This document shows, piece by piece, positions 48,559 to 61,340 of a stretch of 64,000 nt of DNA. Each line of letters starts with the position of its first letter. The first letter of the stretch is position 1. The DNA is from a virus (taxonomy: Duplodnaviria; Caudoviricetes), in IMG/VR virus record IMGVR_UViG_3300030419_006251, positions 136,761 to 200,760 of that record. One strand, written 5' to 3'. Below the pieces are notes generated by a model, which had not been told where the DNA came from, did no database searches, and saw only the letters and a list, made by a program, of their open reading frames with translations. The position numbers were made by a program, and so were the translations under genes.

Positions 48559-48933
48559 TTACTTTATTCTCTCCTTTATACCCTCGATGTGTTTGCATTT
48601 ACGACGATAGCTATACCCAATGCAAGTACAACTGAAAAAAATCTGGCGCGAATCGCTCTGATACTCGGTCACGATATATTCACTCCCTCTCGACCCCATC
48701 ACCTTCCACTCTCGACCCTCGCGCGGGGCGGCTGGCTGCTTCTCTCGGCGCTTCACCACCATGTATCGGGGCAAGTCCTCAAAGGTGGTGCTCGGAGGCA
48801 CTGAGAGCCATTCTGAGCCGCTGACTGCATAAGTGCCTGATGGTAGTCTCGTGATGCACGGAGGCCAGTCAACCTCGATGGGGCTGACCGGCGGAGTGTG
48901 CAAAGGTTTATTATCAATCGCAGTCAATGGCAA
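48559..48933 (-). CDS. SWIM zinc-finger protein
   Basis: GSRGSEYIV...FSCTCIGYSYRRKCKHI. Confidence 0.8.
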   Translation of the reverse strand: MPLTAIDNKPLHTPPVSPIEVDWPPCITRLPSGTYAVSGSEWLSVPPSTTFEDLPRYMVVKRREKQPAAPREGREWKVMGSRGSEYIVTEYQSDSRQIFFSCTCIGYSYRRKCKHIEGIKERIK

Positions 48934-50158
48934 TAATCCTCTCGTTGGTCTGGAAGTACGGACGCTGGGCGTAATACTTAGTCGTCATCCACATACGCTG
49001 ACACTTGGATGGAATGGGCTTGGGAGCCATGAGATCCGTCAGGACGATGTGACCGTCGAACCCGTGATCGTTGACATACTTGGTCGGAGGGTTGAAGTCG
49101 GTGCCGCCGTAGCGCACACGGACCCACTTGCGCTTCTCGTTACGCTTCCACACATGAATAAAATCTTCTGCAACCTCGGTATCAAAGGGGATTACCGTGA
49201 ACTCAGCTAGCTCGGCCAGCTTGTTCAACTCAGAGAAGAACGCGGCCAGCATGCCATCATCAACAGAACCGGACTGATCGATGCTGATCGCGATACGAGC
49301 TTGACGACGGACCTTAGAGCCTGCATGGATGTAGGGGTAACGCTTATTCAGGCGCTTCACCGTGCGAGTCTTGTTGGACCGTTGAGAGGTTTTAATGAAG
49401 TACCGCAGCACTTTGCGCCAATCAACCTTAGAGGCGATACGGTCAAGGATGTCGCGACGGCACTCACCAGACACGGAACCCCAGCTATTGGCCTTCTGAG
49501 CCTCTTCTGCAGCCTTCTTGACTGATTCCTTTAGACGCTCCTTCGCGATGTCCTGAGCGGCCCCCTGGCCCTCGCCCCAGCCACTATGATCATCAAAGCT
49601 GTCGCCAAGCTGATCGGATGGGTCGCCGGATCCTCCACCTTCGCCGTCGCCCTGCTGTTCGTCCTGCTCTTCCTGCTTCTTCTTGAGAGCAGCAAAATAA
49701 TGCTCCGCGCTCTTGCCCTTTTCCATATCCGCAAATGGGCCCTCACCGGGCATGCAGCACTGTTCGGGCAACTCGCCGACAAGGTGAGAGTTGATCGCAA
49801 GATCCGTGGCGATGTTCCACATTTTAGACATGCCACCATCGGGCAAACGACCAGTGACATGCTCAAAGACAAGATGATAGAACTCATGCTTGAGCACTCC
49901 AGCACGCTGGACATCTGGCAGCTTCGCAAAGAAGGCCGGATTGTAGAGCATTTCAAAGTGACCATCATCAGTCACGCGAACACCAGCAGTCGGGATCGCG
50001 CCCGATGCCTTCTTGTTGATGCGTCGAGAGAGGGCCGCAAAGAACGGCTCGTCAACGAGTAGACGCGCGGTGTGACGATTCAAGTCAAACTCTGCCACTG
50101 CAGCGGCTAGCTCCTCGGGAGTCATTTCGGGCGCGGGGGATGAAACGGGCTGGGTCAT
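48914..50158 (-). CDS. Putative metallopeptidase + VWA-like domain protein (DUF2201 type)
   Basis: TAGV..MLYNP.F; VLKHEFYHLVFEH; WNIATDLAIN; ISIDQSGSV; GGTDFNP; IVLTD. Confidence 0.85.
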   Translation of the reverse strand: MTQPVSSPAPEMTPEELAAAVAEFDLNRHTARLLVDEPFFAALSRRINKKASGAIPTAGVRVTDDGHFEMLYNPAFFAKLPDVQRAGVLKHEFYHLVFEHVTGRLPDGGMSKMWNIATDLAINSHLVGELPEQCCMPGEGPFADMEKGKSAEHYFAALKKKQEEQDEQQGDGEGGGSGDPSDQLGDSFDDHSGWGEGQGAAQDIAKERLKESVKKAAEEAQKANSWGSVSGECRRDILDRIASKVDWRKVLRYFIKTSQRSNKTRTVKRLNKRYPYIHAGSKVRRQARIAISIDQSGSVDDGMLAAFFSELNKLAELAEFTVIPFDTEVAEDFIHVWKRNEKRKWVRVRYGGTDFNPPTKYVNDHGFDGHIVLTDLMAPKPIPSKCQRMWMTTKYYAQRPYFQTNERIIAIDCD

Positions 50159-50181
50159 AGAAATCTCCTTGCTATACTATA

Positions 50182-50236
50182 AATATAGCATGGTGAGGCG
50201 AAAAGGTCAAGGCTCAAGCTGTCAAGAGAATGTCAA
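50182..50236 (-). promoter_or_regulatory. Triple -35 early promoter, copy 1
   Basis: TTGACA-5-TTGACA-9-TTGACC-17-TATATT. Confidence 0.8.
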
Positions 50237-50535
50237 ATGTCCTCTTCACACGCTCTCGCCTCCTTATCAAGCTCTGCGAGGTCTTCAGCGACATCGGCGA
50301 CGGTCATGGGCCGGTCCTTTCGTCGCTTGGCAGCTTCTCGATCCAACCTCCCCCATCGACGCGATCCGTTTGGATGCTCGCACAAGTGGAGATCGGTGAT
50401 TCCAAGGGCTGTGTAGCGTTTCAGGGCCGTCTGAGTGGCTCGGAGGGTGTCGGGACGGGTTAGCACTGTCTCGTACCCTGAGAGCCGTCCTGCGGCGTCT
50501 AAGTTGACATGCGTGCGGCTGATATAGTATTTCAC
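50233..50535 (-). CDS. Hypothetical protein (GTG start, 100 aa)
   Basis: MKYYISRTHV...; stop is the TGA inside a promoter TTGACA. Confidence 0.55.
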   Translation of the reverse strand: MKYYISRTHVNLDAAGRLSGYETVLTRPDTLRATQTALKRYTALGITDLHLCEHPNGSRRWGRLDREAAKRRKDRPMTVADVAEDLAELDKEARACEEDI

Positions 50536-50627
50536 TATCGGCCCTCGTAGAAAGCGCAGACGGGGATCCCGACGAGTGCGGTGCTCCAAAGAGCGATGAT
50601 GATGGATGATGCGATGATTGCTGTCAT
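50535..50627 (-). CDS. 30-aa membrane peptide (not in ORF track)
   Basis: MTAIIASSIIIALWSTALVGIPVCAFYEGR with AGGAGG SD. Confidence 0.5.
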   Translation of the reverse strand: MTAIIASSIIIALWSTALVGIPVCAFYEGR

Positions 50628-50664
50628 GATATGCCTCCTATGGCGATTGAGTAAAGGTTTAATA

Positions 50665-50740
50665 TGGTGGGCCCTGTCGGATTTGAACCGACGACTATCC
50701 CGTTATGAGCGGGGCGCTCTTACCACTGAACTAAAGGCCC
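50665..50740 (-). tRNA. tRNA with CAT anticodon, probably Ile2 (lysidine type)
   Basis: GGGCCTT acceptor, loop CTCATAA, GGTTCAAATCC, CCA; acceptor resembles Ile2 rather than initiator Met. Confidence 0.88.
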
Positions 50741-50744
50741 GGAA

Positions 50745-50820
50745 TGGTGGGTCAACTGGGACTCGAACCCAGAACCTACGGCTTAAAAGGCCGGTGCTCT
50801 ACCCGTTGAGCTATTGACCC
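50745..50820 (-). tRNA. tRNA-Lys(TTT)
   Basis: GGGTCAA acceptor, loop CTTTTAA, GGTTCGAGTCC, CCA. Confidence 0.95.
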
Positions 50821-50822
50821 GA

Positions 50823-50908
50823 TGGTAGCTGCGGCGGGAGTCGAACCCGCATGCTCATTGGAGCGAGAGATTTTAAGTCTCTTGTGTCTACCGTTCCACC
50901 ACGCAGCC
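50823..50908 (-). tRNA. tRNA-Leu(TAA)
   Basis: GGCTGCG acceptor, AGAGA-CTTAAAA-TCTCT, long variable arm, GGTTCGACTCC, CCA. Confidence 0.95.
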
Positions 50909-50917
50909 AAGGTTTAT

Positions 50918-51985
50918 TTACTGCTGGGACTCTCCAGTCAATAGTTCGACAAGATAGCCACTGACGGATGTACCATCTGCGGCAGAGGACTGGTGAAGCT
51001 CAACAGTATTCTGGATCTCACCGTTGCCCAGAACAACCCACAGCTTCATGGCTACCTCGGATGGCAGCGTGACGAAATAGTTAGCAAGGTTCTGTACCTG
51101 CTCGGCGGGCAGAGCCTCTGCGAAAGCTGCGGTAGCCTCCATCTTCTCGACTAGTGCGCTGTGATCGTTGATCGTGAAATCACTGGTGCGGTCAATCTCA
51201 CCCTTGACCAAAATATCCTCGACCGTCACCTGACGGGAATAGTTGGTGAAGAAGTCCTGCAGTGCAACGGCAGCTTCAAAGCCAACAAACGCTGCAGCGA
51301 GGTTAAAGATCGTACCCGCGTCTGCGTCCTCACCAAGGAGATCCGCGCCGGTCGCTGCCTGATTCAGGCGATCCCAGGAACGACGAGAAGGGTATACCTT
51401 GTTCGGCTCAAAATCGCCGGTGTGCTCAAGGTGATTACGGTTCTGATTGATGAAATCCCAGACCAGACCATCAACCTCGGTCTTGGCCCAATCAAGCCAG
51501 TCCTCGTGGGAAGGCTCGACATCGAAGACCGTGTAGCGGTCAAGCTCCGCAGGATCCATTTCGCCGACCTGATACTGTGCGCCGTGCTCGCCACCGTTGA
51601 CGGCTGCGACAATGATGGTGTCAGCGTGGAGGCTGAAACCGGCCAGCTTGCGACTGTCGGTCAACTCAAAGATGCCTTGACGGACCTCGGGAGTCGCACG
51701 GTCAACCTCATCGAGGAAGAGCACCACAGGCTCATCACAGGCAGTCTTGAACCACGCGGGCGGGTTCCAAGTGGTGACAGCACCGTCAGTGCTCGGAAGG
51801 CCAAGAAGATCGCCCTCAGTCATCTGAGAGGCGCGGCGCTCCACAACCGGGAGTCCGAGATCGCCCGCCAACTGGTAGACAACCTGAGATTTGCCCACAC
51901 CGTGACGGCCACGGAGCAGCACGGGAAACCGTGCAGCGGTGACATGAGGGACGATAGCGCGAAAGGTCTTGAAATCAACTGCCAT
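50918..51985 (-). CDS. MoxR-like AAA+ ATPase
   Basis: Walker A GRHGVGKS, Walker B VLFLDEVDR, AAVN, MDPAELDR, SRRSW. Confidence 0.9.
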   Translation of the reverse strand: MAVDFKTFRAIVPHVTAARFPVLLRGRHGVGKSQVVYQLAGDLGLPVVERRASQMTEGDLLGLPSTDGAVTTWNPPAWFKTACDEPVVLFLDEVDRATPEVRQGIFELTDSRKLAGFSLHADTIIVAAVNGGEHGAQYQVGEMDPAELDRYTVFDVEPSHEDWLDWAKTEVDGLVWDFINQNRNHLEHTGDFEPNKVYPSRRSWDRLNQAATGADLLGEDADAGTIFNLAAAFVGFEAAVALQDFFTNYSRQVTVEDILVKGEIDRTSDFTINDHSALVEKMEATAAFAEALPAEQVQNLANYFVTLPSEVAMKLWVVLGNGEIQNTVELHQSSAADGTSVSGYLVELLTGESQQ

Positions 51986-52036
51986 GATAGGACTCCTTAG
52001 TCGAGGGGGCGAGGGTTCATCCCTCGCTACATTATA

Positions 52037-52091
52037 AATATAGCACAGTGGGGGGAAAAGGTCAAGGACATTCTTGTAAAGAGAATGTCAA
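52037..52091 (-). promoter_or_regulatory. Triple -35 early promoter, copy 2
   Basis: TTGACA-5-TTTACA-9-TTGACC-17-TATATT; a fourth hexamer TTAACA lies 11 bp further upstream. Confidence 0.8.
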
Positions 52092-52099
52092 GAAGATGT

Positions 52100-52624
52100 T
52101 TAACTTACCAGCGTGAAGGCATCGGCCCGGTCGCTGATCTCAGAAATCGAGGTTGTAGGCGCGGTTTGAGAAGGCTTAAGAAGTTTAATCCTGAAGCCAC
52201 CCCAGTCACCATCCCACATGAAGTGGTCGATCACCAGACCTTCGCCGTGATGCTGATGGCACACAAGCGATCCTATGCCGATGGGCTTGGGACGCTCAGA
52301 AATCAGTTCCATGGCCTCGCTGCGCTCGATAGGCTCACCGTCCAAGAAGACCGTATCGGAGGGCTCAGAAGGGCTCTCAGGGGCCTTAAACACAAAGTCA
52401 TCCCAGTCGAGGACGAAATCAATCGCGTTGCAGGCTTCGTGACCAGCCTCGGTCAGATCCCATTCGGGCGGGTGGATGCTGGTTCGCACGGCAAGTCCAG
52501 CCAGCACGAGCATATCCAGATGAGCGCGATTCGGCTCAAGCTCGCCCATGTGCATAAGTGCGTGCCATTCGTCCTCGGTCAGCTTGAGGGCGCGAAGGTC
52601 AGAAGTGGTCGGGGTGTCAGTCAT
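52100..52624 (-). CDS. Hypothetical protein with C-terminal SH3-like segment
   Basis: IGIGSLVCH...EGLVID...FRIKL; SD AAGGAG. Confidence 0.55.
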   Translation of the reverse strand: MTDTPTTSDLRALKLTEDEWHALMHMGELEPNRAHLDMLVLAGLAVRTSIHPPEWDLTEAGHEACNAIDFVLDWDDFVFKAPESPSEPSDTVFLDGEPIERSEAMELISERPKPIGIGSLVCHQHHGEGLVIDHFMWDGDWGGFRIKLLKPSQTAPTTSISEISDRADAFTLVS

Positions 52625-52653
52625 CGGGTAGCTCCTTGCTCGATTACCCCTGT

Positions 52654-52708
52654 ATTATCTCACAGGGGAGAGGGAAAGTCAATAGAAAGTTTGTCAAGAG
52701 AATGTCAA
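52654..52708 (-). promoter_or_regulatory. Triple -35 early promoter, copy 3
   Basis: TTGACA-5-TTGACA-9-TTGACT-17-GATAAT. Confidence 0.75.
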
Positions 52709-52710
52709 GA

Positions 52711-53439
52711 CTACTCGTCACCCTGTTCACGCCAGAACCAGTAGTCGCGCTTTGCGCCCTTCTCAAAAATATCCACGCTGGCATAATCGAGGTTGGAAGC
52801 CGCTTCCCAGCCTGCTGGTGGCGTCGGCACAACATGGGCACGACTCAGGATAGTCACCGTGTTCCATCGGCTGGAAGACTGCGTGACTTCGCTCGGGAAC
52901 GAGAGCACACAAGGTTTATTATCCGTCACTCGACGCGCGATGATGGCAGCGGGCCACTTGGCTTTGCGGTGAATCGTGTCCCACTTGATGCCCGTGACGA
53001 TACACGGAGTCACCGTGCCATACTCATCATGCGACAGGAGAGTGCCGGGACCGACGCCATGTTCACGCATCGCATCCAACACGGTGCGTCGAGTCTCGAC
53101 GGTCAGAGCAGCGTAACGCTCACGATCTGCCTTTTGCTGCGGGCATGTGCGTCGGTTATGTCCGTTCTCCCCGCAATAGCCGCACACGCGGCCTCCGTGG
53201 GTCGCTCGGCGACGGCGTTTGCTTTCGCCCGTGATTGGATCTTCTCCGATGCGCTTGGCTAGCTTTTCGCGAGTGCGCTGATAGGTATAGTCGTCTTCTG
53301 GTCGGGATCCATTCTCGACCTCTTTCCGTAGTCGTTCAAAGCGGTGAGCCATTTGCTCCGTCAACTTCTCGCAGCTTGCGCGGTTGTGGCCTCGCTCGTA
53401 GCAGTGGCCGCATCGAATAGTTCCAGAATAGTTACCCAT
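52711..53439 (-). CDS. Protein with two CCHC zinc knuckles
   Basis: CGHCYERGHNRASC and CGYCGENGHNRRTC (CX2CX4HX4C). Confidence 0.8.
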   Translation of the reverse strand: MGNYSGTIRCGHCYERGHNRASCEKLTEQMAHRFERLRKEVENGSRPEDDYTYQRTREKLAKRIGEDPITGESKRRRRATHGGRVCGYCGENGHNRRTCPQQKADRERYAALTVETRRTVLDAMREHGVGPGTLLSHDEYGTVTPCIVTGIKWDTIHRKAKWPAAIIARRVTDNKPCVLSFPSEVTQSSSRWNTVTILSRAHVVPTPPAGWEAASNLDYASVDIFEKGAKRDYWFWREQGDE

Positions 53440-53484
53440 GTAAAATCTCCAGTGTCAGAGGGTTCAACTCGTTCTTACCCTATA

Positions 53485-53539
53485 AATATAGCCGATATAA
53501 ACGAGGAAGTCAAGGTTAAAGTTGTAAAGAGAATGTCAA
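53485..53539 (-). promoter_or_regulatory. Triple -35 early promoter, copy 4
   Basis: TTGACA-5-TTTACA-9-TTGACT-17-TATATT. Confidence 0.8.
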
Positions 53540-53549
53540 GAGAGGTTAA

Positions 53550-53725
53550 AGAGTGAGTCCGGTCGATGATCGCTGTCCTTGCCGCGTCTTCCTCACCAGC
53601 TTTGTTTTAACTCCCTCGCGGGTTCGCACGCGCATCTACCGTGTTCGGTGACTCTCGCCGTGCAGTGGGTTCATTCAAAGCGTTGAACCCCACCTTTAGT
53701 TTACTATTTCGACCGGACTCACTCT
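53550..53725 (-). ncRNA. Candidate 176-nt structured RNA with perfect 17-bp closing stem
   Basis: AGAGTGAGTCCGGTCGA (53550-53566) / TCGACCGGACTCACTCT (53709-53725); internal hairpins including CCC-GCGA-GGG; fully intergenic. Confidence 0.65.
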
Positions 53726-53733
53726 AGAAAGGT

Positions 53734-54546
53734 TTATTTTACTTTTCGCGCTGCTTTAAGGTGGCGTTCCTCGATAATCACGGGGCGTGCCCCACCGACC
53801 GGCAACACGCTATACTTCTTCGCGCCACGGGCTGCGCTAGTCACTGGTGCAGCGTCGGTCTTGATGACAACGCAAGGCTTATTTCCAGTGCCCCAACGGG
53901 CGCTAGAGGGCGCGGAAGCCCTAAGAGCGACAAATGACCCTGCCGCGTATTTCGGGGCGCTCAGAGTGGCCTCAATGACCTTCTGGGCGTACTTGTTCTC
54001 GACCATCTTACGGTACTGCTTTTGGGTCGGAACGCCATCGGCCAGCACCTTTGTGACAACACCTTGAAAATAGCTTGTCGTCTGGTAGTAACGCGCGGCG
54101 ATGACAGCGCGGTCACGCGGAGACACACCCTTCTCGTCTGGCGAGGTATAATCAGTCGCCCATGTAGCTGCTGCAGCCATGGCCTCATCACTGTTTTCGC
54201 GCTCGATCTTCTCAAGAATCTGTACCTGCTTGGGACTGAGATCACGCCCACCCTGTACCTGTAGGCTCAGACTCATCACAAAGCGGCTAGCCCATGCATC
54301 ATCGCTTACACGCTCTGACAGTGCGCTCAGACGCTTGATCATGGTGCCGCCGCGCTTTGCTGCCTCGGCCAGCTTCTCGGCGCTATAGCGGTCCTCAAGC
54401 TCTCTAACGCAACGCGCTCGGCCAGAGGTCAGGCGACCTTTGCTCTTATAGTAGTGCTGCAAGCTCTCGCAGAACTGACGATCCCGCTGTGAGAGCGGGC
54501 GGGCGAGAAGAGCGATGAAGCGGTCGGCGTAAGTCAGACGGGGCAT
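53734..54546 (-). CDS. Hypothetical protein, repeated LSxKQ helical units plus C-terminal SH3-like domain
   Basis: ATG at 54546 with AAGGAG SD; LSQRDR/LTSGR/LSPKQ/PTQKQ units; GSFVALR...CVVIK...YSVL...LKAA. Confidence 0.6.
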   Translation of the reverse strand: MPRLTYADRFIALLARPLSQRDRQFCESLQHYYKSKGRLTSGRARCVRELEDRYSAEKLAEAAKRGGTMIKRLSALSERVSDDAWASRFVMSLSLQVQGGRDLSPKQVQILEKIERENSDEAMAAAATWATDYTSPDEKGVSPRDRAVIAARYYQTTSYFQGVVTKVLADGVPTQKQYRKMVENKYAQKVIEATLSAPKYAAGSFVALRASAPSSARWGTGNKPCVVIKTDAAPVTSAARGAKKYSVLPVGGARPVIIEERHLKAARKVK

Positions 54547-54569
54547 AGAATCTCCTTGGTTACGCATAT

Positions 54570-54624
54570 AATATAGCCTATGCGCGGGCAGAAGTCAAGT
54601 CAGGAAATGTCAGGGAAATGTCAA
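54570..54624 (-). promoter_or_regulatory. Triple -35 early promoter, copy 5
   Basis: TTGACA-5-CTGACA-9-TTGACT-17-TATATT. Confidence 0.8.
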
Positions 54625-54830
54625 ATCGTAAAATCAATGATTGCAACTCCTCTTTCGGGCTGCTCATCTTCATCGACTTTATGCATGGGCGATTCATAAT
54701 CGCGTGGATCGTGGAGCGGTTCGATGGGATCGGGGGCGCGTAGCTGCAGTGGCGGCTGTCCATCTGGGTGCTCGCGGCGCATAAGGTCGAGGATGACACT
54801 GATCGGAAGGGTCGGATGCATATGATTCAC
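54621..54830 (-). CDS. Hypothetical protein
   Basis: 69 aa; AAGGAG SD; stop inside a promoter TTGACA. Confidence 0.6.
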   Translation of the reverse strand: MNHMHPTLPISVILDLMRREHPDGQPPLQLRAPDPIEPLHDPRDYESPMHKVDEDEQPERGVAIIDFTI

Positions 54831-54845
54831 TCCTTGCTTGCCTAT

Positions 54846-54900
54846 AATATATAGTATTCTGGGGCTGAAATCAACCCTTTTCTTGTAAAGGATTTGTCAA
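54846..54900 (-). promoter_or_regulatory. Triple -35 early promoter, copy 6
   Basis: TTGACA-5-TTTACA-9-TTGATT-17-TATATT. Confidence 0.75.
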
Positions 54901-55068
54901 CGCCTGCAAGAGCCCGCCAGTACACCATCGCTTGACACCAGTATCAGCAAAACAAATCAGATATTGATCGGTTCCTTCTGAAACCTTTAATATGATACCG
55001 GGCGGCTGACTGCCTAGTCCTCGACTCCACATCGCCAAATCGCCTACCTTAAATCTTCTATTTCTCAT
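54871..55068 (-). CDS. SH3/KOW-like array protein
   Basis: FKVGDLAMW...GIILKV...YLICF...LQAL. Confidence 0.65.
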   Translation of the reverse strand: MRNRRFKVGDLAMWSRGLGSQPPGIILKVSEGTDQYLICFADTGVKRWCTGGLLQALTNPLQEKG

Positions 55069-55388
55069 GCTGCAACCTTTGTTTTAAGAATCTCGCACTC
55101 ATACATGAAGTCATCCCATGTCTTCTCAACCCATTCGCCAAAGATGCCGTATAGCTCTCCTGCTGTCATCTTTCGCAGCTTTTCATGATGCCACTCGGGA
55201 GGTTCGACAGCAGCGTCTTCCTCGATGCCGCTACGGTCGTTGTAGACCTTCTTCGCGTCCTCGTCGTCCTCTATTCCGAGATATTGTAGTACATCCTCAA
55301 TAGCTGCGAGGATTGCGCCCTTCTCAGTGAAGTGCGTACTACATGCCATTTCGCCATCGTAGCGAACCATAAAAACCCAAATCGGCAT
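55065..55388 (-). CDS. Hypothetical acidic protein
   Basis: 107 aa, coupled to both neighbours. Confidence 0.6.
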   Translation of the reverse strand: MPIWVFMVRYDGEMACSTHFTEKGAILAAIEDVLQYLGIEDDEDAKKVYNDRSGIEEDAAVEPPEWHHEKLRKMTAGELYGIFGEWVEKTWDDFMYECEILKTKVAA

Positions 55389-55591
55389 TAACCAGTTCCT
55401 CCCTCTTCGACCTTGTTAGCTCCCTTGCTAACAAGGTTTATTTTCCAAGGGGCGAAGTATTCGCCCGTGTGAATCTTAATCATCTTTGTGCCAAGCACCG
55501 CAGTGTCGGCAACCTCTACTATCAATGCAGTCTCGCCGGTGTCTCTGATCCTAACAAGATCGCCAACTTTCCAGGGTCTAGGGTCTTTCAC
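55388..55591 (-). CDS. SH3/KOW-like array protein (GTG start)
   Basis: MKDPRPWKVGDLVRIRDTGETALIVEV; SD GGAGGTGATC. Confidence 0.7.
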   Translation of the reverse strand: MKDPRPWKVGDLVRIRDTGETALIVEVADTAVLGTKMIKIHTGEYFAPWKINLVSKGANKVEEGGTG

Positions 55592-55733
55592 TGATCACCT
55601 CCAGTCCTGTCGAATAGTTATCAGCATCTTCAACGATGCCATCGTCAAACCACTTAATCAATGTCTCATAGGCATCAGCCACGATCACGATTGCTAAATG
55701 TCCGTTACAACTTACCAAATCACCGACTTTCAT
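55578..55733 (-). CDS. SH3/KOW-like array protein (51 aa)
   Basis: MKVGDLVSC...LIKWF...LEVISERP. Confidence 0.7.
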   Translation of the reverse strand: MKVGDLVSCNGHLAIVIVADAYETLIKWFDDGIVEDADNYSTGLEVISERP

Positions 55734-55896
55734 TGATAGCCTCCAGATGATGGGAGAGAAATGAATGGGTGGATCCTTTGACGAGCACGCGATAATGAAG
55801 GATCCGATAACCACTCGGATGGTCGCTGATCTCGACGATCAGGCCGAGAGGTTTATTATCGACCGCAACACACTTGACTAAATCACCGACCTGCAT
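55720..55896 (-). CDS. SH3/KOW-like array protein (58 aa)
   Basis: MQVGDLVKC...LGLIVEI...YRVLV...LEAINESR. Confidence 0.7.
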   Translation of the reverse strand: MQVGDLVKCVAVDNKPLGLIVEISDHPSGYRILHYRVLVKGSTHSFLSHHLEAINESR

Positions 55897-56062
55897 TGAC
55901 AACCTCTATGTATCGGGCATCCCAGTATTCATACCGCCGCACCCGGCTGCACCAAACTCTTACGAACTCACTCGATGCAGCGTTCCTTGTCACTATCGCA
56001 GCGGGGCCGAATGCGGCACCCGTCTTAGCGTGTTTCATCCTTACCAAATCACCGACTTGCAT
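55883..56062 (-). CDS. SH3/KOW-like array protein (59 aa, not in ORF track)
   Basis: MQVGDLVRMKHAKTGAAFGPAAIVTRNAASSEFVRVWCSRVRRYEYWDARYIEVVNAGR. Confidence 0.7.
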   Translation of the reverse strand: MQVGDLVRMKHAKTGAAFGPAAIVTRNAASSEFVRVWCSRVRRYEYWDARYIEVVNAGR

Positions 56063-56267
56063 TGATAACCTCCAAATCTCTCCCTAAATAACGGCGGTTC
56101 TGTCCCCATGCAAAATCACCTCCAATAAGCTGCAGTATGTGAATCTTCTCGCCCGATGCAGTATCATAGTCGCCACGGGTGGCATGCGAGGACACGATCA
56201 GGCCCAGTGTGCCGACAGGTACGCCGATGGAGGCGCGTGTAACTTTAACGAGATCACCGACAGTCAC
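56049..56267 (-). CDS. SH3/KOW-like array protein
   Basis: MTVGDLVKV...LGLIV...LEVINASR. Confidence 0.7.
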   Translation of the reverse strand: MTVGDLVKVTRASIGVPVGTLGLIVSSHATRGDYDTASGEKIHILQLIGGDFAWGQNRRYLGRDLEVINASR

Positions 56268-56433
56268 TTATCACCTCGATGTCAAGGGGGTTAGCATAAA
56301 TCTGATAGTTGCCTTTAATGGACTCAACAATAGCGACAGTGTTAAACAAGTCAGCTTTGATCGCGATGATGACACCGATGACAGGCTCTCGGCCATGGGT
56401 ACGCTTCACGCTTACCAAGTTGCCGACTTTCAT
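56254..56433 (-). CDS. SH3/KOW-like array protein (59 aa, not in ORF track)
   Basis: MKVGNLVSVKRTHGREPVIGVIIAIKADLFNTVAIVESIKGNYQIYANPLDIEVISDCR. Confidence 0.7.
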   Translation of the reverse strand: MKVGNLVSVKRTHGREPVIGVIIAIKADLFNTVAIVESIKGNYQIYANPLDIEVISDCR

Positions 56434-56639
56434 GCTGTCACCTCTCGCATGTGCTTCAACAAGCCGCGATCAATGATCGTCGGGCTTGTGTTTCCGACTA
56501 TCAAAACCTTGTGGTTCTCTATGGTCGCGCCATCGTCGCGACGGATGAAAGCCTCACCCAAATACATCGCCAGTCGGCCATTCACGGTTGTTGTGTGTCC
56601 GTTAATACGGTCAAATCTGTATAGCTTACCGACTTTCAT
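56430..56639 (-). CDS. SH3/KOW-like array protein (69 aa)
   Basis: MKVGKLYRF...LAMYLG...HKVLI...MREVTA. Confidence 0.65.
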   Translation of the reverse strand: MKVGKLYRFDRINGHTTTVNGRLAMYLGEAFIRRDDGATIENHKVLIVGNTSPTIIDRGLLKHMREVTA

Positions 56640-56760
56640 TATTATCCTCAACCAAAGAGTTCCAGTGATCCCACGGGAACACCACAATAGCAAGTACACA
56701 CAGGCTGGGAAGAATCCACAAACCGTTGTCCAACAACATTATCTGCCAATCACTTAGCAT
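56626..56760 (-). CDS. 44-aa membrane peptide embedded in the array (not in ORF track)
   Basis: MLSDWQIMLLDNGLWILPSLCVLAIVVFPWDHWNSLVEDNNESR; SD GGAGGTGATC; junction-type sequence at both ends. Confidence 0.6.
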   Translation of the reverse strand: MLSDWQIMLLDNGLWILPSLCVLAIVVFPWDHWNSLVEDNNESR

Positions 56761-56929
56761 TGATCACCTCCAATCGTGACATGAGCCTCGTGGCGATAAG
56801 CTCGCCAGATGTGAGCAGGATAGCCCACATGCCACGCTCGGTCAGCGGAATCTTTGTAACGATCCCCACTTGACCCTGATAGCTCATGAAGGGCTCCGCT
56901 ATCCTTACCAAATCGCCAACCTTGATCAT
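56750..56929 (-). CDS. SH3/KOW-like array protein (59 aa, not in ORF track)
   Basis: MIKVGDLVRIAEPFMSYQGQVGIVTKIPLTERGMWAILLTSGELIATRLMSRLEVINAK. Confidence 0.7.
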   Translation of the reverse strand: MIKVGDLVRIAEPFMSYQGQVGIVTKIPLTERGMWAILLTSGELIATRLMSRLEVINAK

Positions 56930-56951
56930 ATCTCTCCCTGATTACCCCTAT

Positions 56952-57006
56952 AATATAGCATGGGTGTGGGTAGAAGTCAAGGAGATCCTTGTCAAGAAGA
57001 TGTCAA
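56952..57006 (-). promoter_or_regulatory. Triple -35 early promoter, copy 7
   Basis: TTGACA-5-TTGACA-9-TTGACT-17-TATATT with TG extension. Confidence 0.82.
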
Positions 57007-57201
57007 AGGTGCGTGGCTGGCCTCGCTGATGACCTCAAGCCACGGCAAGTCGCATATGCATATCTCACCTTCAGTCAGTACGGTGTAGAAGTGATCAACC
57101 GAATCGTGACCAGTTTCGATCACCGCCGTGACCACGCCGATGCCCATGTCGATGTTGATGGGCATAACTATCCTCACCAAATCACCAACCTTTATTTTCA
57201 C
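56992..57201 (-). CDS. SH3/KOW-like array protein (GTG start, 69 aa)
   Basis: MKIKVGDLVRI...GIGVV...YTVL...LEVISEASHAPLTSS. Confidence 0.7.
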   Translation of the reverse strand: MKIKVGDLVRIVMPINIDMGIGVVTAVIETGHDSVDHFYTVLTEGEICICDLPWLEVISEASHAPLTSS

Positions 57202-57413
57202 TTGCGTACCTTCTTCGACAAGATCGTGTAAGCGGCCAGACCTCTCCACTCGTCAGGCGGATCCTTGATAAATCGAATCCACTCCCCCTTGGCGTCACAC
57301 TTATATTCAACGACGATCTGAGGCATGGAAGATGAGTCGTCCTTGACAAGTGCGCCGATCATTGATCCCGCTTCTTTGATGATGTACTTCATGTTACCAA
57401 CCTTTATTTTCAA
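57198..57413 (-). CDS. SH3/KOW-like array protein, divergent (TTG start)
   Basis: MKIKVGN...; shares an identical 17-bp start region (57396-57412) with 57184-57200. Confidence 0.55.
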   Translation of the reverse strand: MKIKVGNMKYIIKEAGSMIGALVKDDSSSMPQIVVEYKCDAKGEWIRFIKDPPDEWRGLAAYTILSKKVRK

Positions 57414-57772
57414 TATACAATGTCAATGACGGGGTGGATGTCAAAGGCGTACCCGCGCCGTTCGATGTCGCCATCGTCTTCGCCGATGCGAACGAAGCGG
57501 AAATACTCATCACCTTCACCAAGGCCCTCAATCTGATCCTCCATGTGCATCATAAACTCCTCGATCGCTGCGATCTCAGGAAAGGAGTCGTACCACTTGA
57601 TACCGTCGAAACGAAACATGATCGATCCCTCCTCGCCTTGGAAGTCCTCGGTGCGATCTGAGTGCTTTCCGAAGCACATCGACATGGCCTCGGGCTCCTT
57701 GCCGAGAAAGTGCATAAGATAAGGTCGAGCTTGCTTGCTGACCGCGAGAATAGCTGTTGAACGATAACCCAT
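57410..57772 (-). CDS. Acidic hypothetical phage protein
   Basis: MGYRS...IKWYDSFPEI...FVRIGEDDGDIE; AGGAG SD. Confidence 0.65.
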   Translation of the reverse strand: MGYRSTAILAVSKQARPYLMHFLGKEPEAMSMCFGKHSDRTEDFQGEEGSIMFRFDGIKWYDSFPEIAAIEEFMMHMEDQIEGLGEGDEYFRFVRIGEDDGDIERRGYAFDIHPVIDIVY

Positions 57773-58008
57773 TATTTATCTCCTTTGAGTATGTCAAGTC
57801 TGTCAAGACCAAAATCTGAAACGGTTGCTGGTCCGTGGTATTTATAGTGTGATGAGTTGATGGCATAGTGGACAGGCTTAACCCATTTCACACGGACATG
57901 CAAAGGTTTATTATGCGAAATCACAAGGCCGATAGCGCCGTGAAACTCGGGATAGTTGCCCTCTGCTCTAAATCTAACTAACTGACCGATTAAACTCTTA
58001 TGAGGCAT
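57772..58008 (-). CDS. SH3/KOW-like array protein (78 aa)
   Basis: LIGQLVRF...IGLVIS...VRVKW...LDIL. Confidence 0.6.
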   Translation of the reverse strand: MPHKSLIGQLVRFRAEGNYPEFHGAIGLVISHNKPLHVRVKWVKPVHYAINSSHYKYHGPATVSDFGLDRLDILKGDK

Positions 58009-58342
58009 TTCGCTTTTCCTTGCTCTCTGTGAGCATCTTCTTAACCCATGCGCCATCGAACTCTGCTGCATACTTGTCGCGAAGTACAAGCAACTTTTCG
58101 CCGTCCTTTGTTTCAAACTGCAGCTTGTAACCGGGGATCAAAAACTCCGTTCCAGCCGGAGCGCCAAGAAAACACTCGCATATGGCATAGGGAACTGACT
58201 TCCAGCGATATTTCATTTCGCCGGTCTTCTTGTCTTTCCAACTGCGCTTAAAGCGTCGGAACTGCATGTCAACGACACGCGCCTGAATAGTGCTGTCTTG
58301 AGTGCGAATGATTACAATGTCGTTCTTAGTCAAATATGCCAT
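57998..58342 (-). CDS. Hypothetical protein (114 aa)
   Basis: ATG at 58342 with AAGGAG SD, directly after a promoter. Confidence 0.65.
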   Translation of the reverse strand: MAYLTKNDIVIIRTQDSTIQARVVDMQFRRFKRSWKDKKTGEMKYRWKSVPYAICECFLGAPAGTEFLIPGYKLQFETKDGEKLLVLRDKYAAEFDGAWVKKMLTESKEKRNAS

Positions 58343-58368
58343 GATGGTTTCTCCTTGATTACCCATAT

Positions 58369-58423
58369 AATATAGCATGGGCGAGAGCAAGAGTCAACAG
58401 GATCCTTGTCAAGAAGATGTCAA
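58369..58423 (-). promoter_or_regulatory. Triple -35 early promoter, copy 8
   Basis: TTGACA-5-TTGACA-9-TTGACT-17-TATATT with TG extension. Confidence 0.82.
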
Positions 58424-58594
58424 AGGTTTAAGATACGACACATGCTCTACCGTAACCCTCTGATCGGCCCACAATATCCGAAAGCGATTCGGAATGACGG
58501 CTACATGCTCTATGATGATGCCGGGGTTCTTGTAATCATCACGATCCGTAACCCAGGAAGAGGAGTGAAACTTAACCAAATCACCGACTTTCAC
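58409..58594 (-). CDS. SH3/KOW-like array protein
   Basis: MKVGDLVKF...PGIIIE...FRILW...LKPLTSS. Confidence 0.72.
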   Translation of the reverse strand: MKVGDLVKFHSSSWVTDRDDYKNPGIIIEHVAVIPNRFRILWADQRVTVEHVSYLKPLTSS

Positions 58595-58751
58595 TGATTA
58601 CCTCCAGGTATTCAGGCTTGAAGCTCTCTCCAGTATGCAAGTGAATCCATATGCTCGCGCATCTCACTCTACCATTTCTCATCACTTCCTTTCTGGCGAT
58701 TATGCCAGTTGTGCCATCATATTTAACTCTCACCAAATCACCGACTTTCAC
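58581..58751 (-). CDS. SH3/KOW-like array protein (56 aa, not in ORF track)
   Basis: MKVGDLVRVKYDGTTGIIARKEVMRNGRVRCASIWIHLHTGESFKPEYLEVISESR. Confidence 0.72.
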   Translation of the reverse strand: MKVGDLVRVKYDGTTGIIARKEVMRNGRVRCASIWIHLHTGESFKPEYLEVISESR

Positions 58752-58932
58752 TGATTACCTCCAGTTGTATATCACTGACCCATTCTTCGCCGTGGGCGAA
58801 CAAGACCAGACAATCATAGAAGCCTGTTTCATCTTCAAGCATATCTGTTATTATTCCTGTCGTTGGCGGCCATGCATATTCTGTCATGGCAGACATCGAG
58901 GGCCTAAGCCTAACCAAATCACCGACTTTCAC
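58738..58932 (-). CDS. SH3/KOW-like array protein
   Basis: MKVGDLVRL...TGIITD...CLVLF...LEVISESR. Confidence 0.75.
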   Translation of the reverse strand: MKVGDLVRLRPSMSAMTEYAWPPTTGIITDMLEDETGFYDCLVLFAHGEEWVSDIQLEVISESR

Positions 58933-59092
58933 TGATCACCTCCAGAAACCGCATCGAATGGTTCCAAACTTCGCCATCGTCCCAGAATACCAGCACTTCT
59001 TTTGAATCTCCGATTTCTTCGGGATCGATGGCTATGATGATGCCTGTATTACTCCCGGCATGCGACTGTGTTACCAGATCACCGACTTTCAT
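58919..59092 (-). CDS. SH3/KOW-like array protein (57 aa)
   Basis: MKVGDLVTQ...TGIIIAI...VLVFWDDG...LEVISESR. Confidence 0.75.
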   Translation of the reverse strand: MKVGDLVTQSHAGSNTGIIIAIDPEEIGDSKEVLVFWDDGEVWNHSMRFLEVISESR

Positions 59093-59223
59093 TGTGTCCC
59101 CTTGTGCTTGATCTTGCGGGTATACTTGGATTTGTCCTTGTGCTTTCCGGCACCCGAACGCAGATGTGCCCGCACTGCGAGCCAGTTGCGAGCTTTCGGG
59201 GTCTTGATCTTTGTTTTCTTCAT
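59089..59223 (-). CDS. 44-aa highly basic peptide, ArfA-like by eye (not in ORF track)
   Basis: MKKTKIKTPKARNWLAVRAHLRSGAGKHKDKSKYTRKIKHKGTQ; first gene after a promoter; ATGA overlap with the next gene. Confidence 0.6.
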   Translation of the reverse strand: MKKTKIKTPKARNWLAVRAHLRSGAGKHKDKSKYTRKIKHKGTQ

Positions 59224-59229
59224 GCCCAT

Positions 59230-59284
59230 AATATAGCACCCTTGACCGAGAAAGTCAAGGGTGCAGTTGTAAAGGAAATGTCAA
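59230..59284 (-). promoter_or_regulatory. Triple -35 early promoter, copy 9, overlapped by an 11-bp inverted repeat
   Basis: TTGACA-5-TTTACA-9-TTGACT-17-TATATT; GCACCCTTGAC/GTCAAGGGTGC at 59236-59264. Confidence 0.8.
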
Positions 59285-59556
59285 GAAGAGTAGAAGACTC
59301 GGACATGACCAATGGGAACCTTTAATATCACCAGTCGCCAGCCCATGAACTTGAGCGGCAACTTGTCCGTGAACTCCTTATCCAAATGCTCATCAGTATC
59401 TTCACACTCAACGATGGCCCTCAAGATGGATCCTCCACCATCTGAGTGGAAATCCACCGTGAAAGCGTTGGGCCAGCTATCGGCCAAGATAGCCATTAAC
59501 GCTTTCCTTACTTCGCTCTGTGAGGCTTTCTCGCCAGAAAATGCCAGGTTAGCCAT
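59281..59556 (-). CDS. Hypothetical protein
   Basis: 91 aa; GAGG SD; stop inside a promoter TTGACA. Confidence 0.6.
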   Translation of the reverse strand: MANLAFSGEKASQSEVRKALMAILADSWPNAFTVDFHSDGGGSILRAIVECEDTDEHLDKEFTDKLPLKFMGWRLVILKVPIGHVRVFYSS

Positions 59557-59578
59557 ATTATATCCTCGCTTGTGATGC

Positions 59579-59773
59579 CTAGTCCGGTCGTTTATCGAAC
59601 ATTTCTTCTACGCTTCCAGTATAATGATTCGGAGCCATAGTCTGCAAGTTCCGCGCTGTCTGTTGGCGGATCTGTCGGTTTGCGGCGCGACCGCCGCAGT
59701 CCAAACAAGTCTTGTATCCTAAAGCCAAGCGTTTATCATTATACTCTTCTTCACACTCAATGCAAATCGCCAT
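59579..59773 (-). CDS. DksA/TraR-like C4 zinc-finger protein
   Basis: CIEC...KRLALGYKTCLDC. Confidence 0.6.
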   Translation of the reverse strand: MAICIECEEEYNDKRLALGYKTCLDCGGRAANRQIRQQTARNLQTMAPNHYTGSVEEMFDKRPD

Positions 59774-59975
59774 TTTCGTCCTCGTTGTTCAAAGGTTTAA
59801 TATCGTCTTCAGTCAAGTACATTGTACCGAACTCTGTGAAGTCAACTGTATAACTATTGCCGTCCTCGCCAACCGAACCGCTCACATCAATGATGATGCC
59901 CTGCTCGCCGCGACTATCAGCGGGTGCGTTATACGACCACTCGCTAATCTCTATATTTTGTCCTACTTCATACAT
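59757..59975 (-). CDS. SH3-like (YorP-like) small protein
   Basis: YEVGQNIEI...GEQGIIIDV...YTVDF...EDDIKPL. Confidence 0.65.
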   Translation of the reverse strand: MYEVGQNIEISEWSYNAPADSRGEQGIIIDVSGSVGEDGNSYTVDFTEFGTMYLTEDDIKPLNNEDENGDLH

Positions 59976-60253
59976 TATGATTTACTCACCATTTTAAGAT
60001 CCTTGCGGTTAAAGTATTTTGTGTAGGCTTCTCGCCCATCTAGATGGTCATTTTCGCCGATCCACGCGATTGTATATTTATTCTGCGTTTCCCAAGGTCG
60101 ATATTCGTGTGGTGGCATAACTTGAGTTACCAATCCGATGAGCGGCTTATCCTCTCCGTTGTGCACTCCCCACTTTCGGCTGGTCATGTGCCGTGCAACA
60201 TGCGTCAGACGCTTACCGTATGCCGACAGAGTTACTAGATCGCCCGTTTTCAC
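59975..60253 (-). CDS. SH3/KOW-like array protein (GTG start, 92 aa)
   Basis: MKTGDLVTL...IGLVTQV...YTIAW...LKMVS; AAGGAG SD. Confidence 0.65.
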   Translation of the reverse strand: MKTGDLVTLSAYGKRLTHVARHMTSRKWGVHNGEDKPLIGLVTQVMPPHEYRPWETQNKYTIAWIGENDHLDGREAYTKYFNRKDLKMVSKS

Positions 60254-60263
60254 CTTGCTCTCC

Positions 60264-60587: not shown

Positions 60588-60599
60588 TTTTTCTCCTTT

Positions 60600-60893: not shown

Positions 60894-60916
60894 GTGTTCT
60901 CCTGTATTGCCCCTAT

Positions 60917-60971
60917 AATATAGCACCGGGGCGAGCACTTGTCAATAGAAAAGATGTCAAGAAAATGTCAA
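60917..60971 (-). promoter_or_regulatory. Triple -35 early promoter, copy 10
   Basis: TTGACA-5-TTGACA-9-TTGACA-17-TATATT. Confidence 0.85.
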
Positions 60972-60974
60972 GAC

Positions 60975-61316: not shown

Positions 61317-61340
61317 GGCGTACCTCCTTCGTACTCATAT

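Follow-up and report, generated by a model that had tools for sequence, protein, structure and literature searches.

Along the early genes of a large marine phage, one short word recurs at the borders of protein and RNA genes alike, always in the same orientation, which raises the question of what it does there. The window, that is, the whole stretch of 64,000 nucleotides that was analysed, is the final 64 kb of the 200.8-kb record of a far-T4-like phage, which its portal protein groups with distant T4-like phages; this phage (G000) is probably lytic, and its minus strand is the sense strand for essentially every gene of the genome. The 10-mer AATAAACCTT, with the 8-mer core TAAACCTT, occurs in six exact copies starting at 48903, 50909, 52911, 53729, 55433 and 57903, where a preliminary description had placed them, and in near copies, all on the minus strand between 48.9 and 59.8 kb. 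Among the near copies named in that description, those at 50654, 53874, 55848 and 59792 have a single mismatch, whereas the one at 58423 differs from the 10-mer at two positions but retains an intact core.

Dinucleotide shuffles gave an expectation of 0.33 copies of AATAAACCTT per window on both strands, and the seven copies per window were reached in none of 100 shuffles. No copy left of 48 kb had been noticed earlier, but an exact one is present at 16627 on the opposite strand, inside a 293-aa gene; this antisense copy looks like a chance occurrence. Over the whole genome, AATAAACCTT was found eight times in sense and once in antisense orientation, with the two sense copies outside the island, at genome positions 898 and 17400, each within a large gene. 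The core was counted 16 times in sense and nine times in antisense, and its entire excess, all sense, is confined to 48.9–59.8 kb of the window, where nine sense and no antisense cores stand against approximately 0.14 predicted from base composition. The word is a real repeat, strictly sense-oriented and restricted to a GC-rich, sigma70-driven early island, whose features are as follows.

48903–48912, minus strand: exact AATAAACCTT, 1 nt past the TGA stop of a 414-aa VWA/DUF2201 gene, in the first codons of a SWIM zinc-finger gene (D-N-K-P-L)
50182–61369, minus strand: eleven early sigma70-type promoter cassettes (repeated TTGACA boxes, then TTGAC-17-TATATT), interspersed with the word
50654–50663, minus strand: near copy ATTAAACCTT, 1 nt past the CCA of tRNA-Met and 26 nt upstream of the ATG of a 30-aa membrane-peptide gene
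50665–50908, minus strand: tRNA-Leu(UAA), tRNA-Lys(UUU) and tRNA-Met(CAU), with a word copy at either side
50909–50918, minus strand: exact copy, overlapping the TAA stop of a 355-aa MoxR-type AAA_5 ATPase gene and abutting base 1 of tRNA-Leu
52171–52178, minus strand: one-mismatch core TAAGCCTT within a 174-aa gene (L-L-K-P-S)
52911–52920, minus strand: exact copy in a 242-aa gene with two CCHC zinc knuckles (D-N-K-P-C-V)
53512–53519, minus strand: TTTAACCTT, directly ahead of the −35 box of the promoter cassette after the ncRNA
53541–53550, minus strand: degenerate copy TTTAACCTCT, between the ncRNA 3′ end and the following promoter cassette
53729–53738, minus strand: exact copy, including the TAA stop of a 277-aa gene, 3 nt ahead of the terminal stem of a 176-nt ncRNA candidate (53550–53725)
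53874–53883, minus strand: near copy AATAAGCCTT in the 277-aa gene (G-N-K-P-C-V)
55433–55442, minus strand: exact copy in the 3′ part of a 67-aa SH3-like mini-gene (K-I-N-L), 44 nt upstream of the ATG of a 107-aa gene; a perfect 10-bp hairpin begins with its CCTT
55848–55857, minus strand: near copy AATAAACCTC in a mini-gene (D-N-K-P-L)
57903–57912, minus strand: exact copy in an SH3-like mini-gene (H-N-K-P-L)
58423–58432, minus strand: CTTAAACCTT, fused with the first TTGACA box of an early promoter cassette
59792–59801, minus strand: near copy ATTAAACCTT, 18 nt upstream of the ATG at 59773

The previously reported adjacency to RNA genes, at tRNA-Leu, tRNA-Met and the ncRNA, was reproduced. 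As a marker of RNA-gene boundaries, however, the word had been described too narrowly: some of the modules it bounds are RNA genes (the tRNA block and the ncRNA), while others are protein genes, where it precedes the ribosome-binding site, promoter cassettes and a hairpin. An upstream stop codon lies at −16 to +3 nt in 20 of 41 copies, compared with 6% of control positions, and the distance from the word to the start codon varies from 0 to 45 nt. The arithmetic behind the noted spacings of 2006 and 2002 bp is correct, but they reflect gene lengths only; the corresponding spacings in relatives are 2007, 2121, 2122 and 1384 bp. The NKP reading frame was recovered at 48903, 52911, 53874, 55848 and 57903, and the copies at 50909 and 55433 read x-I-N-L. 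Coding may explain the near copy at 53874, as its peptide resembles that at 52911. The core-like match at 52171 is probably a coding coincidence; its synonymous positions differ among phages (AAG CCT in G000, AAG CCC in G002 and AAA CCT in G001). We tentatively regard the consensus, A-W-V-W-TAAACCTT-K, as a portable junction sequence of this early, hyperplastic (fast-changing) island, a reading to which we give somewhat less than an even chance.

The word is carried by a group of large uncultured marine phages, and lineages have their own flavours of it. G001 has 14 sense copies in the form AGTTAAACCTT within 161–174 kb and a background level elsewhere, G002 has five copies within its first 8 kb, and the version of a distant lineage is AGTAAACTT. 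Close relatives share it at the VWA stop/SWIM gene, tRNA-Met/peptide gene and gene/ncRNA joints and at the ATPase stop/tRNA-Leu joint (also in G002, L210, L211 and L213). The 48903 copy is retained in five close relatives with variable flanks, and its G001 counterpart precedes a relocated SWIM gene in another frame (ATG AAG TTA AAC CTT). At the 50654 joint, L210 and L211 are identical and G002 is degenerate (TTTTAACCTT). The 53729 word is kept in G002, 1 nt ahead of the ncRNA candidate; in G001 it is degenerate, and an exact copy stands instead after the ncRNA 3′ end. G001 also conserves the 57903 copy, shares the arrangement at 58423 and has AGTTAAACCTT with an identical hairpin at 55433. The 52911 copy is kept in L211 and reads AATAAAACTT in G002 (P to T); in L216 the same 242-aa gene has TAAACCTT 8 nt further along and read in a different frame, and L212 shows ATAAGCCTT at this displaced site.

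At anchored joints, pairwise identity was 0.93–1.0 in the word and 0.40–0.65 in the flanks. Because equivalent sites read their copies in different frames (the word before SWIM gives NKP in most genomes but LNL in G001, and that at 59792 gives IKPL in G000 but LNL in G001), conservation acts at the nucleotide level, which bears out the initial view of a phage-specific, strand-oriented nucleotide signal. The core persists even in lineages whose ATPase is only approximately 70% identical, a survival that a conserved reader, protein or RNA, fits at least as well as the junction reading does. The invariance at equivalent joints and the 8-nt-displaced copy of L216 suggest direct selection on the word, which the junction reading does not require.

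Alternatively, the word could act in early transcripts, as a target that a sequence-specific ribonuclease of host or phage cuts or that an RNA-binding protein of either recognises. We consider this unlikely, as we do its corollary that each module, be it mRNA, tRNA precursor or ncRNA, is severed at the word from the upstream gene; breakpoints there would then be secondary, modules carrying the word because they need it. Every copy is co-oriented with transcription in a host-transcribed island, the tRNA block and the ncRNA are bracketed within 0–8 nt in several genomes, and other copies lie right after stop codons or 12–45 nt upstream of starts. The constancy of the word between variable flanks, its reappearance a few bases off in another frame and the retention of its core across divergent lineages agree with such a site, and it would form an AU-rich single-stranded patch uncommon in these GC-rich transcripts. 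However, cleavage would ruin the message at several copies that lie within ORFs, one of them in the opening codons of the SWIM gene, half of the 55433 word is locked in a 10-bp stem, copies immediately ahead of promoters have no obvious RNA role, and no excess RNA structure flanks the word on either side. Among 30 ORFs of the island and its neighbourhood, none was recognised as a member of a ribonuclease family, and the distribution of the sole RNase H-like protein (PF04308) across genomes does not follow that of the word.

The portable-junction reading, which was not among the functions proposed initially and is the one best supported by comparison with relatives, draws instead on the different modules, and different module orders, that related phages have at the word. 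At 50909, the homology between G000 and G001 ends on the last base of the word, with word–tRNAs–word in the former and word–hairpin–word in the latter. L214 has the 30-aa peptide cassette at the VWA/SWIM joint with a word copy on either side, while G000 has this cassette after the tRNAs, its 5′ edge likewise marked by the word. The relocated SWIM gene of G001 keeps the word at its 5′ edge, G002 has an 850-bp insertion terminating in the word, and homology between G000 and G001 starts right behind the 58423 copy and, at 59792, at the word itself, where the frame of the upstream gene differs. Two of the insertions, that of the SWIM gene at its G001 position and that of the 850-bp block in G002, correspond to an "empty" site in the compared genome that has no copy of the word. 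Of 216 homology-block ends, 24 fall no more than 5 nt from the word, where the null model gave a mean of 3.6 and never more than 10 in 1000 trials. This is approximately sevenfold over chance for word intervals making up 1.5% of the sequence. At 10 nt or less the count rises to 38, against a null mean of 4.9; as the null drew random positions and not gene boundaries, part of this enrichment reflects the gene-end location of the word. The 55-nt promoter cassettes of the island are enriched at block ends as well (36/216).

If the word is a junction where modules recombine, which we put a little below even, then during replication or mixed infection the phage recombination or annealing machinery would pair identical copies lying in differing contexts, and a crossover within the word would insert, delete, replace or move the flanked module, itself undamaged. 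The single orientation would follow, since inverted copies would flip segments of a unidirectionally transcribed genome, as would the restriction to a dispensable island, since deletion between copies elsewhere would be lethal. Repeated exchange would homogenise the copies and account for the lineage-wide flavours AATAAACCTT, AGTTAAACCTT and AGTAAACTT, and the built-in TAA would shut one reading frame entering a new joint. Nevertheless, 10–13 bases are short for homologous recombination, for which the 55-nt promoter cassettes are better substrates, and breakpoints would be expected to coincide with the word also if it were an expression signal required by every viable module; an additional expression role may help preserve it. 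The analysis found no recombinase, homing nuclease or DNA-binding protein.

Breakpoints near the word are also compatible with a recombination hotspot, so that the word could be a signal for a DNA-tracking enzyme, either Chi-like, for a host RecBCD/AddAB-type nuclease, or a T5-type strand-specific nick site. Like density-type signals of this kind, the word is strictly oriented and clustered, is flexible in position and frame and prefers unconstrained spacers, and its lineage variants could track host differences. We nonetheless judge this very improbable, and equally so that a Chi-like word protects incoming DNA and stimulates exchange nearby. Chi acts over kilobases and would not produce base-exact breakpoints, and conservation of the same joints across genomes is unexpected for a pure density signal. 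No observation ties the island to a physical DNA end: terminal-repeat-flagged related records begin at unrelated places, and in one the island lies mid-record. Likewise, the suggested DNA-entry signal is weakened, as the complete relatives start at differing places relative to the island; such variation among these IMG/VR records is expected of circular or permuted assemblies that have no fixed end near it.

Two further possibilities concern transcription. One, which we think rather improbable, is an oriented DNA-binding site for an early phage protein acting on elongating host RNA polymerase; no more probable is that the bound protein halts or slows transcription into distal modules, as an immediate-early versus delayed split or as island shutdown. 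An asymmetric 12–13-nt word, always co-oriented with transcription and mostly at gene ends, has about the information of a monomer binding site, and its lineage-specific flavours suggest a co-evolving reader. At least one copy lies in 8 of the 11 promoter-to-promoter intervals of G000; this one-per-unit pattern is not significant, however (P ~0.06). A block at the word would come too late to silence the genes immediately behind each promoter, which precede it. Apart from CCHC knuckles and the SWIM finger, families also present in relatives without the word, the island ORFs have no recognised DNA-binding domain. The precedent is the stoperators of cluster A mycobacteriophages, read by a monomeric repressor (PMC9283540), which are likewise asymmetric sites of approximately 13 bp that face one way with respect to transcription and often lie at stop codons and in short gaps (PMC9283540, PMC6550527). 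Stoperators, however, are spread over whole genomes of temperate phages with a known repressor (PMC9283540, PMC6550527), whereas the word is confined to a single early island of a probably lytic phage, for which no binding protein was found.

The other possibility, also raised initially, is a −10-only or otherwise unusual promoter whose transcripts start at the module boundary. G000 copies often have (G/C/T)ATAAT directly before AAACCTT, and the ncRNA and tRNA-Leu start 0–3 nt past the word. Yet no hexamer preserved across 28 copies has A in its second and T in its sixth position, the G001 variant AGTTAAACCTT has no such hexamer at all, and its form AGTTAAACC is without −10 likeness. A sigma70-spaced start would land on or inside tRNA-Leu, copies lie within ORFs and immediately ahead of complete sigma70 promoters, and 11 consensus promoters of this type are already present in the island. 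The word was therefore rejected as a sigma70 promoter, since the A2/T6 hexamer is not kept and the start would fall inside tRNA-Leu, and an unusual promoter is highly improbable.

Like attC sites and integrase-less cassette arrays (CALINs), the word is oriented, lies at cassette boundaries and flanks an inserted cassette on both sides, and the GTTAAAC of the G001 form matches the GTTRRRY core. The AATAAAC of the G000 form does not, several word-bounded cassettes have their own promoters, unlike integron cassettes, and the phage encodes no tyrosine recombinase. An attC identity was rejected, as neither an inverse core nor a palindromic partner turned up within 160 nt of any of 28 copies. The start-associated sequences of cluster K mycobacteriophages are also short, asymmetric, co-oriented with genes and just upstream of some start codons, a feature shared by the word at a subset of starts. 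Those sequences keep a fixed distance of a few bases from the start codon, whereas the word lies 0 to 45 nt away and many copies precede RNA genes or promoters.

The closest parallel to the portable-junction reading is provided by the promoter-early stem-loops (PeSLs) of T4-type phages (Arbiol et al., 2010, PMC2839356; Comeau et al., 2014, PMC4122927), which, together with degraded "half" PeSLs, lie at indels in hyperplastic regions, and for which module exchange by these longer promoter–terminator cassettes has been proposed and partly demonstrated. The word shares with them a short, repeated, co-oriented sequence between small non-essential genes of a hyperplastic early region, insertion, deletion and replacement ends falling in it between close relatives, and lineage-specific flavours; the island itself has PeSL-like promoter cassettes, enriched at block ends. 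Unlike PeSLs, the word is only 10–13 nt long, is neither promoter nor terminator, has no consistent stem-loop, also bounds tRNA and ncRNA modules, and is known here from genome comparison; it occurs in only approximately 5% of 294 family promoters, most copies being solitary. Module exchange at the word would be a new variation on an established mode of phage evolution.

The source phage record, G000, is 200,760 bp long, positions 136761-200760 of which (its final 64 kb) make up the window. Nearly every ORF of at least 120 aa is carried by the minus strand, which is therefore the sense strand throughout. Close DNA relatives of G000 were sought among deposited phages and none was found; compared with the nearest cultured phages, the ATPase is no more than 31% identical and the portal protein no more than 42%. 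Since the portal protein is ~42% identical to its counterparts in the distant T4-like Microcystis phage Mel-JY01 and Flavobacterium phage immuto, G000 is classed here, by sequence, as a distant T4-like phage without a close cultured relative. At 48-60 kb the window contains a GC-rich island (50-56% GC vs ~36% nearby) that is dense with small genes and carries eleven near-consensus sigma70 promoters with repeated TTGACA boxes, three tRNA genes, an ncRNA candidate, and a gene trio for a MoxR-type ATPase, a VWA/DUF2201 protein and a SWIM-finger protein. Features in and around the island are listed below, together with their state in the close relatives G001 and G002 and in the genomes G003-G006.

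Features of the island and its surroundings (window coordinates)
45021-45488, minus strand: 155-aa protein of the RNaseH_like family PF04308 (E 4e-28); in G001 and G005, missing from G003, G004 and G006
48559-48933, minus strand: SWIM-finger protein with a TTG start, whose clade N-terminal extension overlaps the end of the VWA gene
~50535-50627, minus strand: gene of a 30-aa hydrophobic peptide (ending ...AFYEGR), a mobile cassette, found at ~2568-2660 in the related locus L214
50182-61369, minus strand: early promoters, built as cassettes with two extra TTGACA-like boxes
52711-53439, minus strand: 242-aa early protein whose C-terminal part is SH3-like and which carries two CCHC zinc knuckles of the retrovirus type; 110 of the 160 related loci contain a homologue; the peptide N-K-P-C-V of this protein is repeated in the C-terminal part of the adjacent 277-aa protein
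53550-53725, minus strand: 176-nt ncRNA candidate, also conserved in both G001 and G002; its terminal stem shows compensating changes; no Rfam family matched it, even at a permissive threshold
55409-55438: perfect 10-bp hairpin beginning in the CCTT of the repeated word described below, identical in G001 and resembling an intrinsic terminator on the opposite strand (stem, then TTTATTTT)
58926-59102: 177-nt stretch with 97.7% identity to G001 166239-166415 (background ~70-80%), a sign of recent exchange of one mini-gene

The word, a short repeated 10-mer with the 8-mer core TAAACCTT, had been described from six exact copies and a list of near copies in one orientation; all of these were recovered, every one on the minus strand, with 0.33 exact copies expected per window by shuffling. 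Over the whole genome, 8 sense exact copies and 1 antisense exact copy were counted. The 8-mer core occurs 16 times in sense and 9 times in antisense, and its entire excess falls within window 48.9-59.8 kb; the copies beyond the island are inside large genes, without common flanks, and look like chance. Among words of the island, its frequency is matched only by promoter words and by the SH3 mini-gene junction. For 28 copies from three genomes, the matrix consensus is A-W-V-W-TAAACCTT-K, with no other conservation from −30 to +47. Searching viral contigs for the 14-mer ATAATAAACCTTTG returned single and scattered matches only.

Using the ATPase as query, 160 related loci were collected from viral and metagenome collections, and enrichment of the word was found to be limited to the closest clade (ATPase identity at least 86%). 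G001 (205.5 kb) has 14 sense copies inside 161-174 kb and a background level elsewhere, G002 has 5 sense and 0 antisense copies, and the loci L210-L214 have 2-4 copies apiece. The dominant form is A(A/C)(G/C)TTAAACCTT in G001 and mostly A(A/T)AATAAACCTT in G000 and G002, while the G003 lineage (ATPase ~70% identity) has the form AGTAAACTT. L024, the locus of G003, contains TAAACTT eight times in sense and zero times in antisense, and 11 of the 24 sense GTAAACTT copies in the whole G003 record lie within a 17-kb island; more variants of the word were found in loci L238 and L285. The regular 2-kb spacing first noted between copies is not kept in relatives, and related records lend no support to a fixed DNA end in the neighbourhood of the island. 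A recombination hotspot of the Chi kind, which the RecBCD/AddAB of a host would recognise, or a T5-type strand-specific nick signal could be read from the single orientation of the copies and is a very improbable function.

Four joints at which the word stands between two modules recur among the relatives.

Joints occupied by the word
ATPase stop - word - tRNA-Leu (five genomes of the close clade)
tRNA-Met CCA - word - ribosome-binding site of the 30-aa membrane peptide (recurs in the close clade)
VWA stop - word - SWIM gene (recurs in the close clade)
277-aa gene stop - word - ncRNA (recurs in the close clade)

When sequences were anchored on the word, pairwise identity was 0.93-1.0 within it and 0.40-0.65 in the flanks. 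In 20 of 41 copies, vs 6% of control positions, the upstream ORF has its stop codon at −16 to +3 nt, and six copies furnish the stop codon themselves; other copies lie 0-45 nt ahead of start codons, immediately before promoter cassettes, or ahead of a hairpin. The tRNA and ncRNA joints would suit RNA processing at module boundaries; no excess of RNA structure was found beside the word, and an Rfam search at a permissive threshold matched tRNAs only. Such processing is, on balance, rather unlikely. An antisense RNA partner was rejected, as the sole exact complement (16627) sits within a protein gene and the other AAGGTTTA sites on the sense strand resemble normal coding sequence or ribosome-binding sites. 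An arrangement of one copy per transcription unit was not significant. As a separate observation, L210 (1185-1287) and L211 (2014-2116) contain ~100 nt between tRNA-Leu and tRNA-Lys that ARAGORN did not call and that is missing from G000, G002 and L213; this stretch could be a non-canonical tRNA or small RNA.

The copies had also been described as forcing an N-K-P peptide on several proteins. One frame is indeed used in this way in G000, and other copies read x-I-N-L or span a stop codon. For the copy at the SWIM 5′ end, the reading is N-K-P in most genomes and L-N-L in G001, in which the gene has moved and starts ATG AAG TTA AAC CTT; similarly, the copy at 59792 reads I-K-P-L in G000 vs L-N-L in G001. 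Within the 242-aa gene, G002 is without the word after a P-to-T change, and in L216 TAAACCTT is displaced 8 nt onward in a different frame. A protein-coded repeat was ruled out, given that at least three frames are in use and equivalent copies switch frame between genomes. Coding may still partly explain the copies at 52911 and 57903, and the near copies at 52171 and 53874 are probably coding coincidences; the N-K-P-C-V encoded at 53874 resembles the peptide at 52911. The N-terminal extension of SWIM is encoded across the word, and distant SWIM homologues begin directly at M-N-P-V-E-V, so the word-bearing stretch at this 5′ end is a clade-specific addition.

Comparison among G000, G001 and G002 revealed that the island is a mosaic of shuffled blocks. 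G000/G001 homology across the ATPase gene stops at the final base of the word, past which come, in G000, three tRNAs and then a second copy and, in G001, a 25-nt hairpin, then a second copy and a promoter. At the VWA/SWIM joint of L214, the 30-aa peptide cassette is inserted between two copies of the word, and in G000, L210 and L211 the same cassette lies behind the tRNAs, again with the word at its head. In G001 the SWIM gene lies behind another gene with the word at its 5′ edge, an 850-bp insertion in G002 has the word as its terminus, and G001 homology starts at or directly after the copies at 59792 and 58423. Statistically, 24 of 216 distinct homology-block ends from eight sequences fall within 5 nt of the word, whose intervals make up 1.5% of the sequence (null mean 3.6, maximum 10), and 38 of 216 fall within 10 nt (null mean 4.9); the null was drawn from random positions, and part of the enrichment reflects the place of the word at gene ends. 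Promoter cassettes are enriched at block ends too (36 of 216 vs 10.9).

The word is thus an oriented, island-restricted junction sequence that is conserved at the nucleotide level, and related phages differ there in module content. Recombination between promoter-early stem-loops (PeSLs) has been proposed, and partly demonstrated, in T4-type phages (PMC2839356, PMC4122927). Excised mini-circles are the product expected when neighbouring PeSL copies recombine. Like PeSLs, the word occupies a hyperplastic region of small variable genes in a T4-like phage, and indel and replacement breakpoints between relatives fall in it. By analogy, recombination between copies, by which the flanked modules would be exchanged, is the most economical mechanism and one that we favor tentatively, at slightly less than even confidence; it would account for the single orientation, the restriction to dispensable DNA and the genome-wide flavours. 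PeSLs are already published, and what is new here is a much shorter, promoter-independent junction word. Whereas a PeSL combines a sigma70-like early promoter with a stem-loop terminator, the word has neither, shows no conservation beyond 13 nt, delimits tRNA and ncRNA modules in addition to genes, and belongs to an uncultured far-T4-like marine lineage.

A −10-only promoter had been among the functions suggested at first. Across the copies of the word, no hexamer keeps both the A of position 2 and the T of position 6 at a fixed offset, its G001 form has no −10 likeness, no −10/−35 pair was found in it, and at the tRNA-Leu joint a start at normal sigma70 spacing would land inside the tRNA. Copies do stand immediately before promoter cassettes, and some overlap the −35 flank; only 14-16 of the 294 family promoters contain the word, so a general part of the promoter cassette was also rejected. 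By sequence, a promoter is scarcely credible. The extra boxes of the cassettes are phased at ~11-12 and 15-17 nt ahead of the true −35 box; with the A/T-rich spacer and the C immediately before TTGAC, they belong to a consensus that the entire phage family shares, as 294 promoters from related loci show. Repeated upstream cassettes in L081 (11 copies of CGGACA...GTCCTCGACAA...TATATTATA) and L285 (6 copies of TGAATAAAAC-N10-ACGTCTAAT) suggest promoter types or regulators besides the TTGACA triple.

Integron attC sites are imperfect palindromes in which an inverse core RYYYAAC pairs with the core GTTRRRY, whereas the word has no such partner: for 28 copies, the 160 nt to the left and to the right contain no inverse core. 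A search of the 200.8-kb genome for the tyrosine recombinase family PF00589 gave no match, and positive controls matched; this lack alone is not decisive against attC, because CALINs likewise have no integrase. GIY-YIG and HNH nucleases (PF01541, PF01844) were not found in the G000 genome either. Among DNA- and RNA-binding families in 30 ORFs, only the CCHC knuckles and the SWIM finger were recognised, with no helix-turn-helix, an absence from Pfam matches that is weak evidence. Both recognised families are present also in relatives without the word, and the presence of the PF04308 protein does not track the word across genomes, which removes it as a reader.

Stoperators provide a precedent for an oriented protein roadblock (PMC9283540), and the word shares with them an asymmetric site of ~13 bp in a single orientation relative to transcription. 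Stoperators have many genome-wide sites and a cognate repressor, whereas the word is island-confined and no repressor family was recognised in the 30 ORFs; a roadblock of this kind, argued by analogy, is quite improbable. That the word is invariant at equivalent joints, reappears in a shifted frame and keeps its core in distant lineages hints at some direct function in addition to recombination between copies. It is conceivable, if unlikely, that the word is the site of a dedicated, co-evolving, sequence-specific reader, a putative phage protein or RNA outside known families, which would either divide early transcripts into units the size of a module or catalyse the exchange of modules.

An old question, dating from the 'linker' idea of modular evolution, is how phages trade genes at precise boundaries in the absence of homology. 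The present case supplies a 10-13-nt word of strict polarity and several clear joints that are 'filled' in some related uncultured genomes and 'empty' in others. The word bounds both protein genes and RNA genes, and a precise prediction follows, that crossovers or RNA ends would lie at named bases. If the reader is real, large lytic marine phages would have an integron-like plug-and-play arrangement for genes, tRNAs and small RNAs that works without an integrase, which would be a cassette system of a new kind for lytic phages. If the word has no reader of its own, the PeSL idea would be extended to far shorter, promoter-independent junctions and to a distant T4-like branch.
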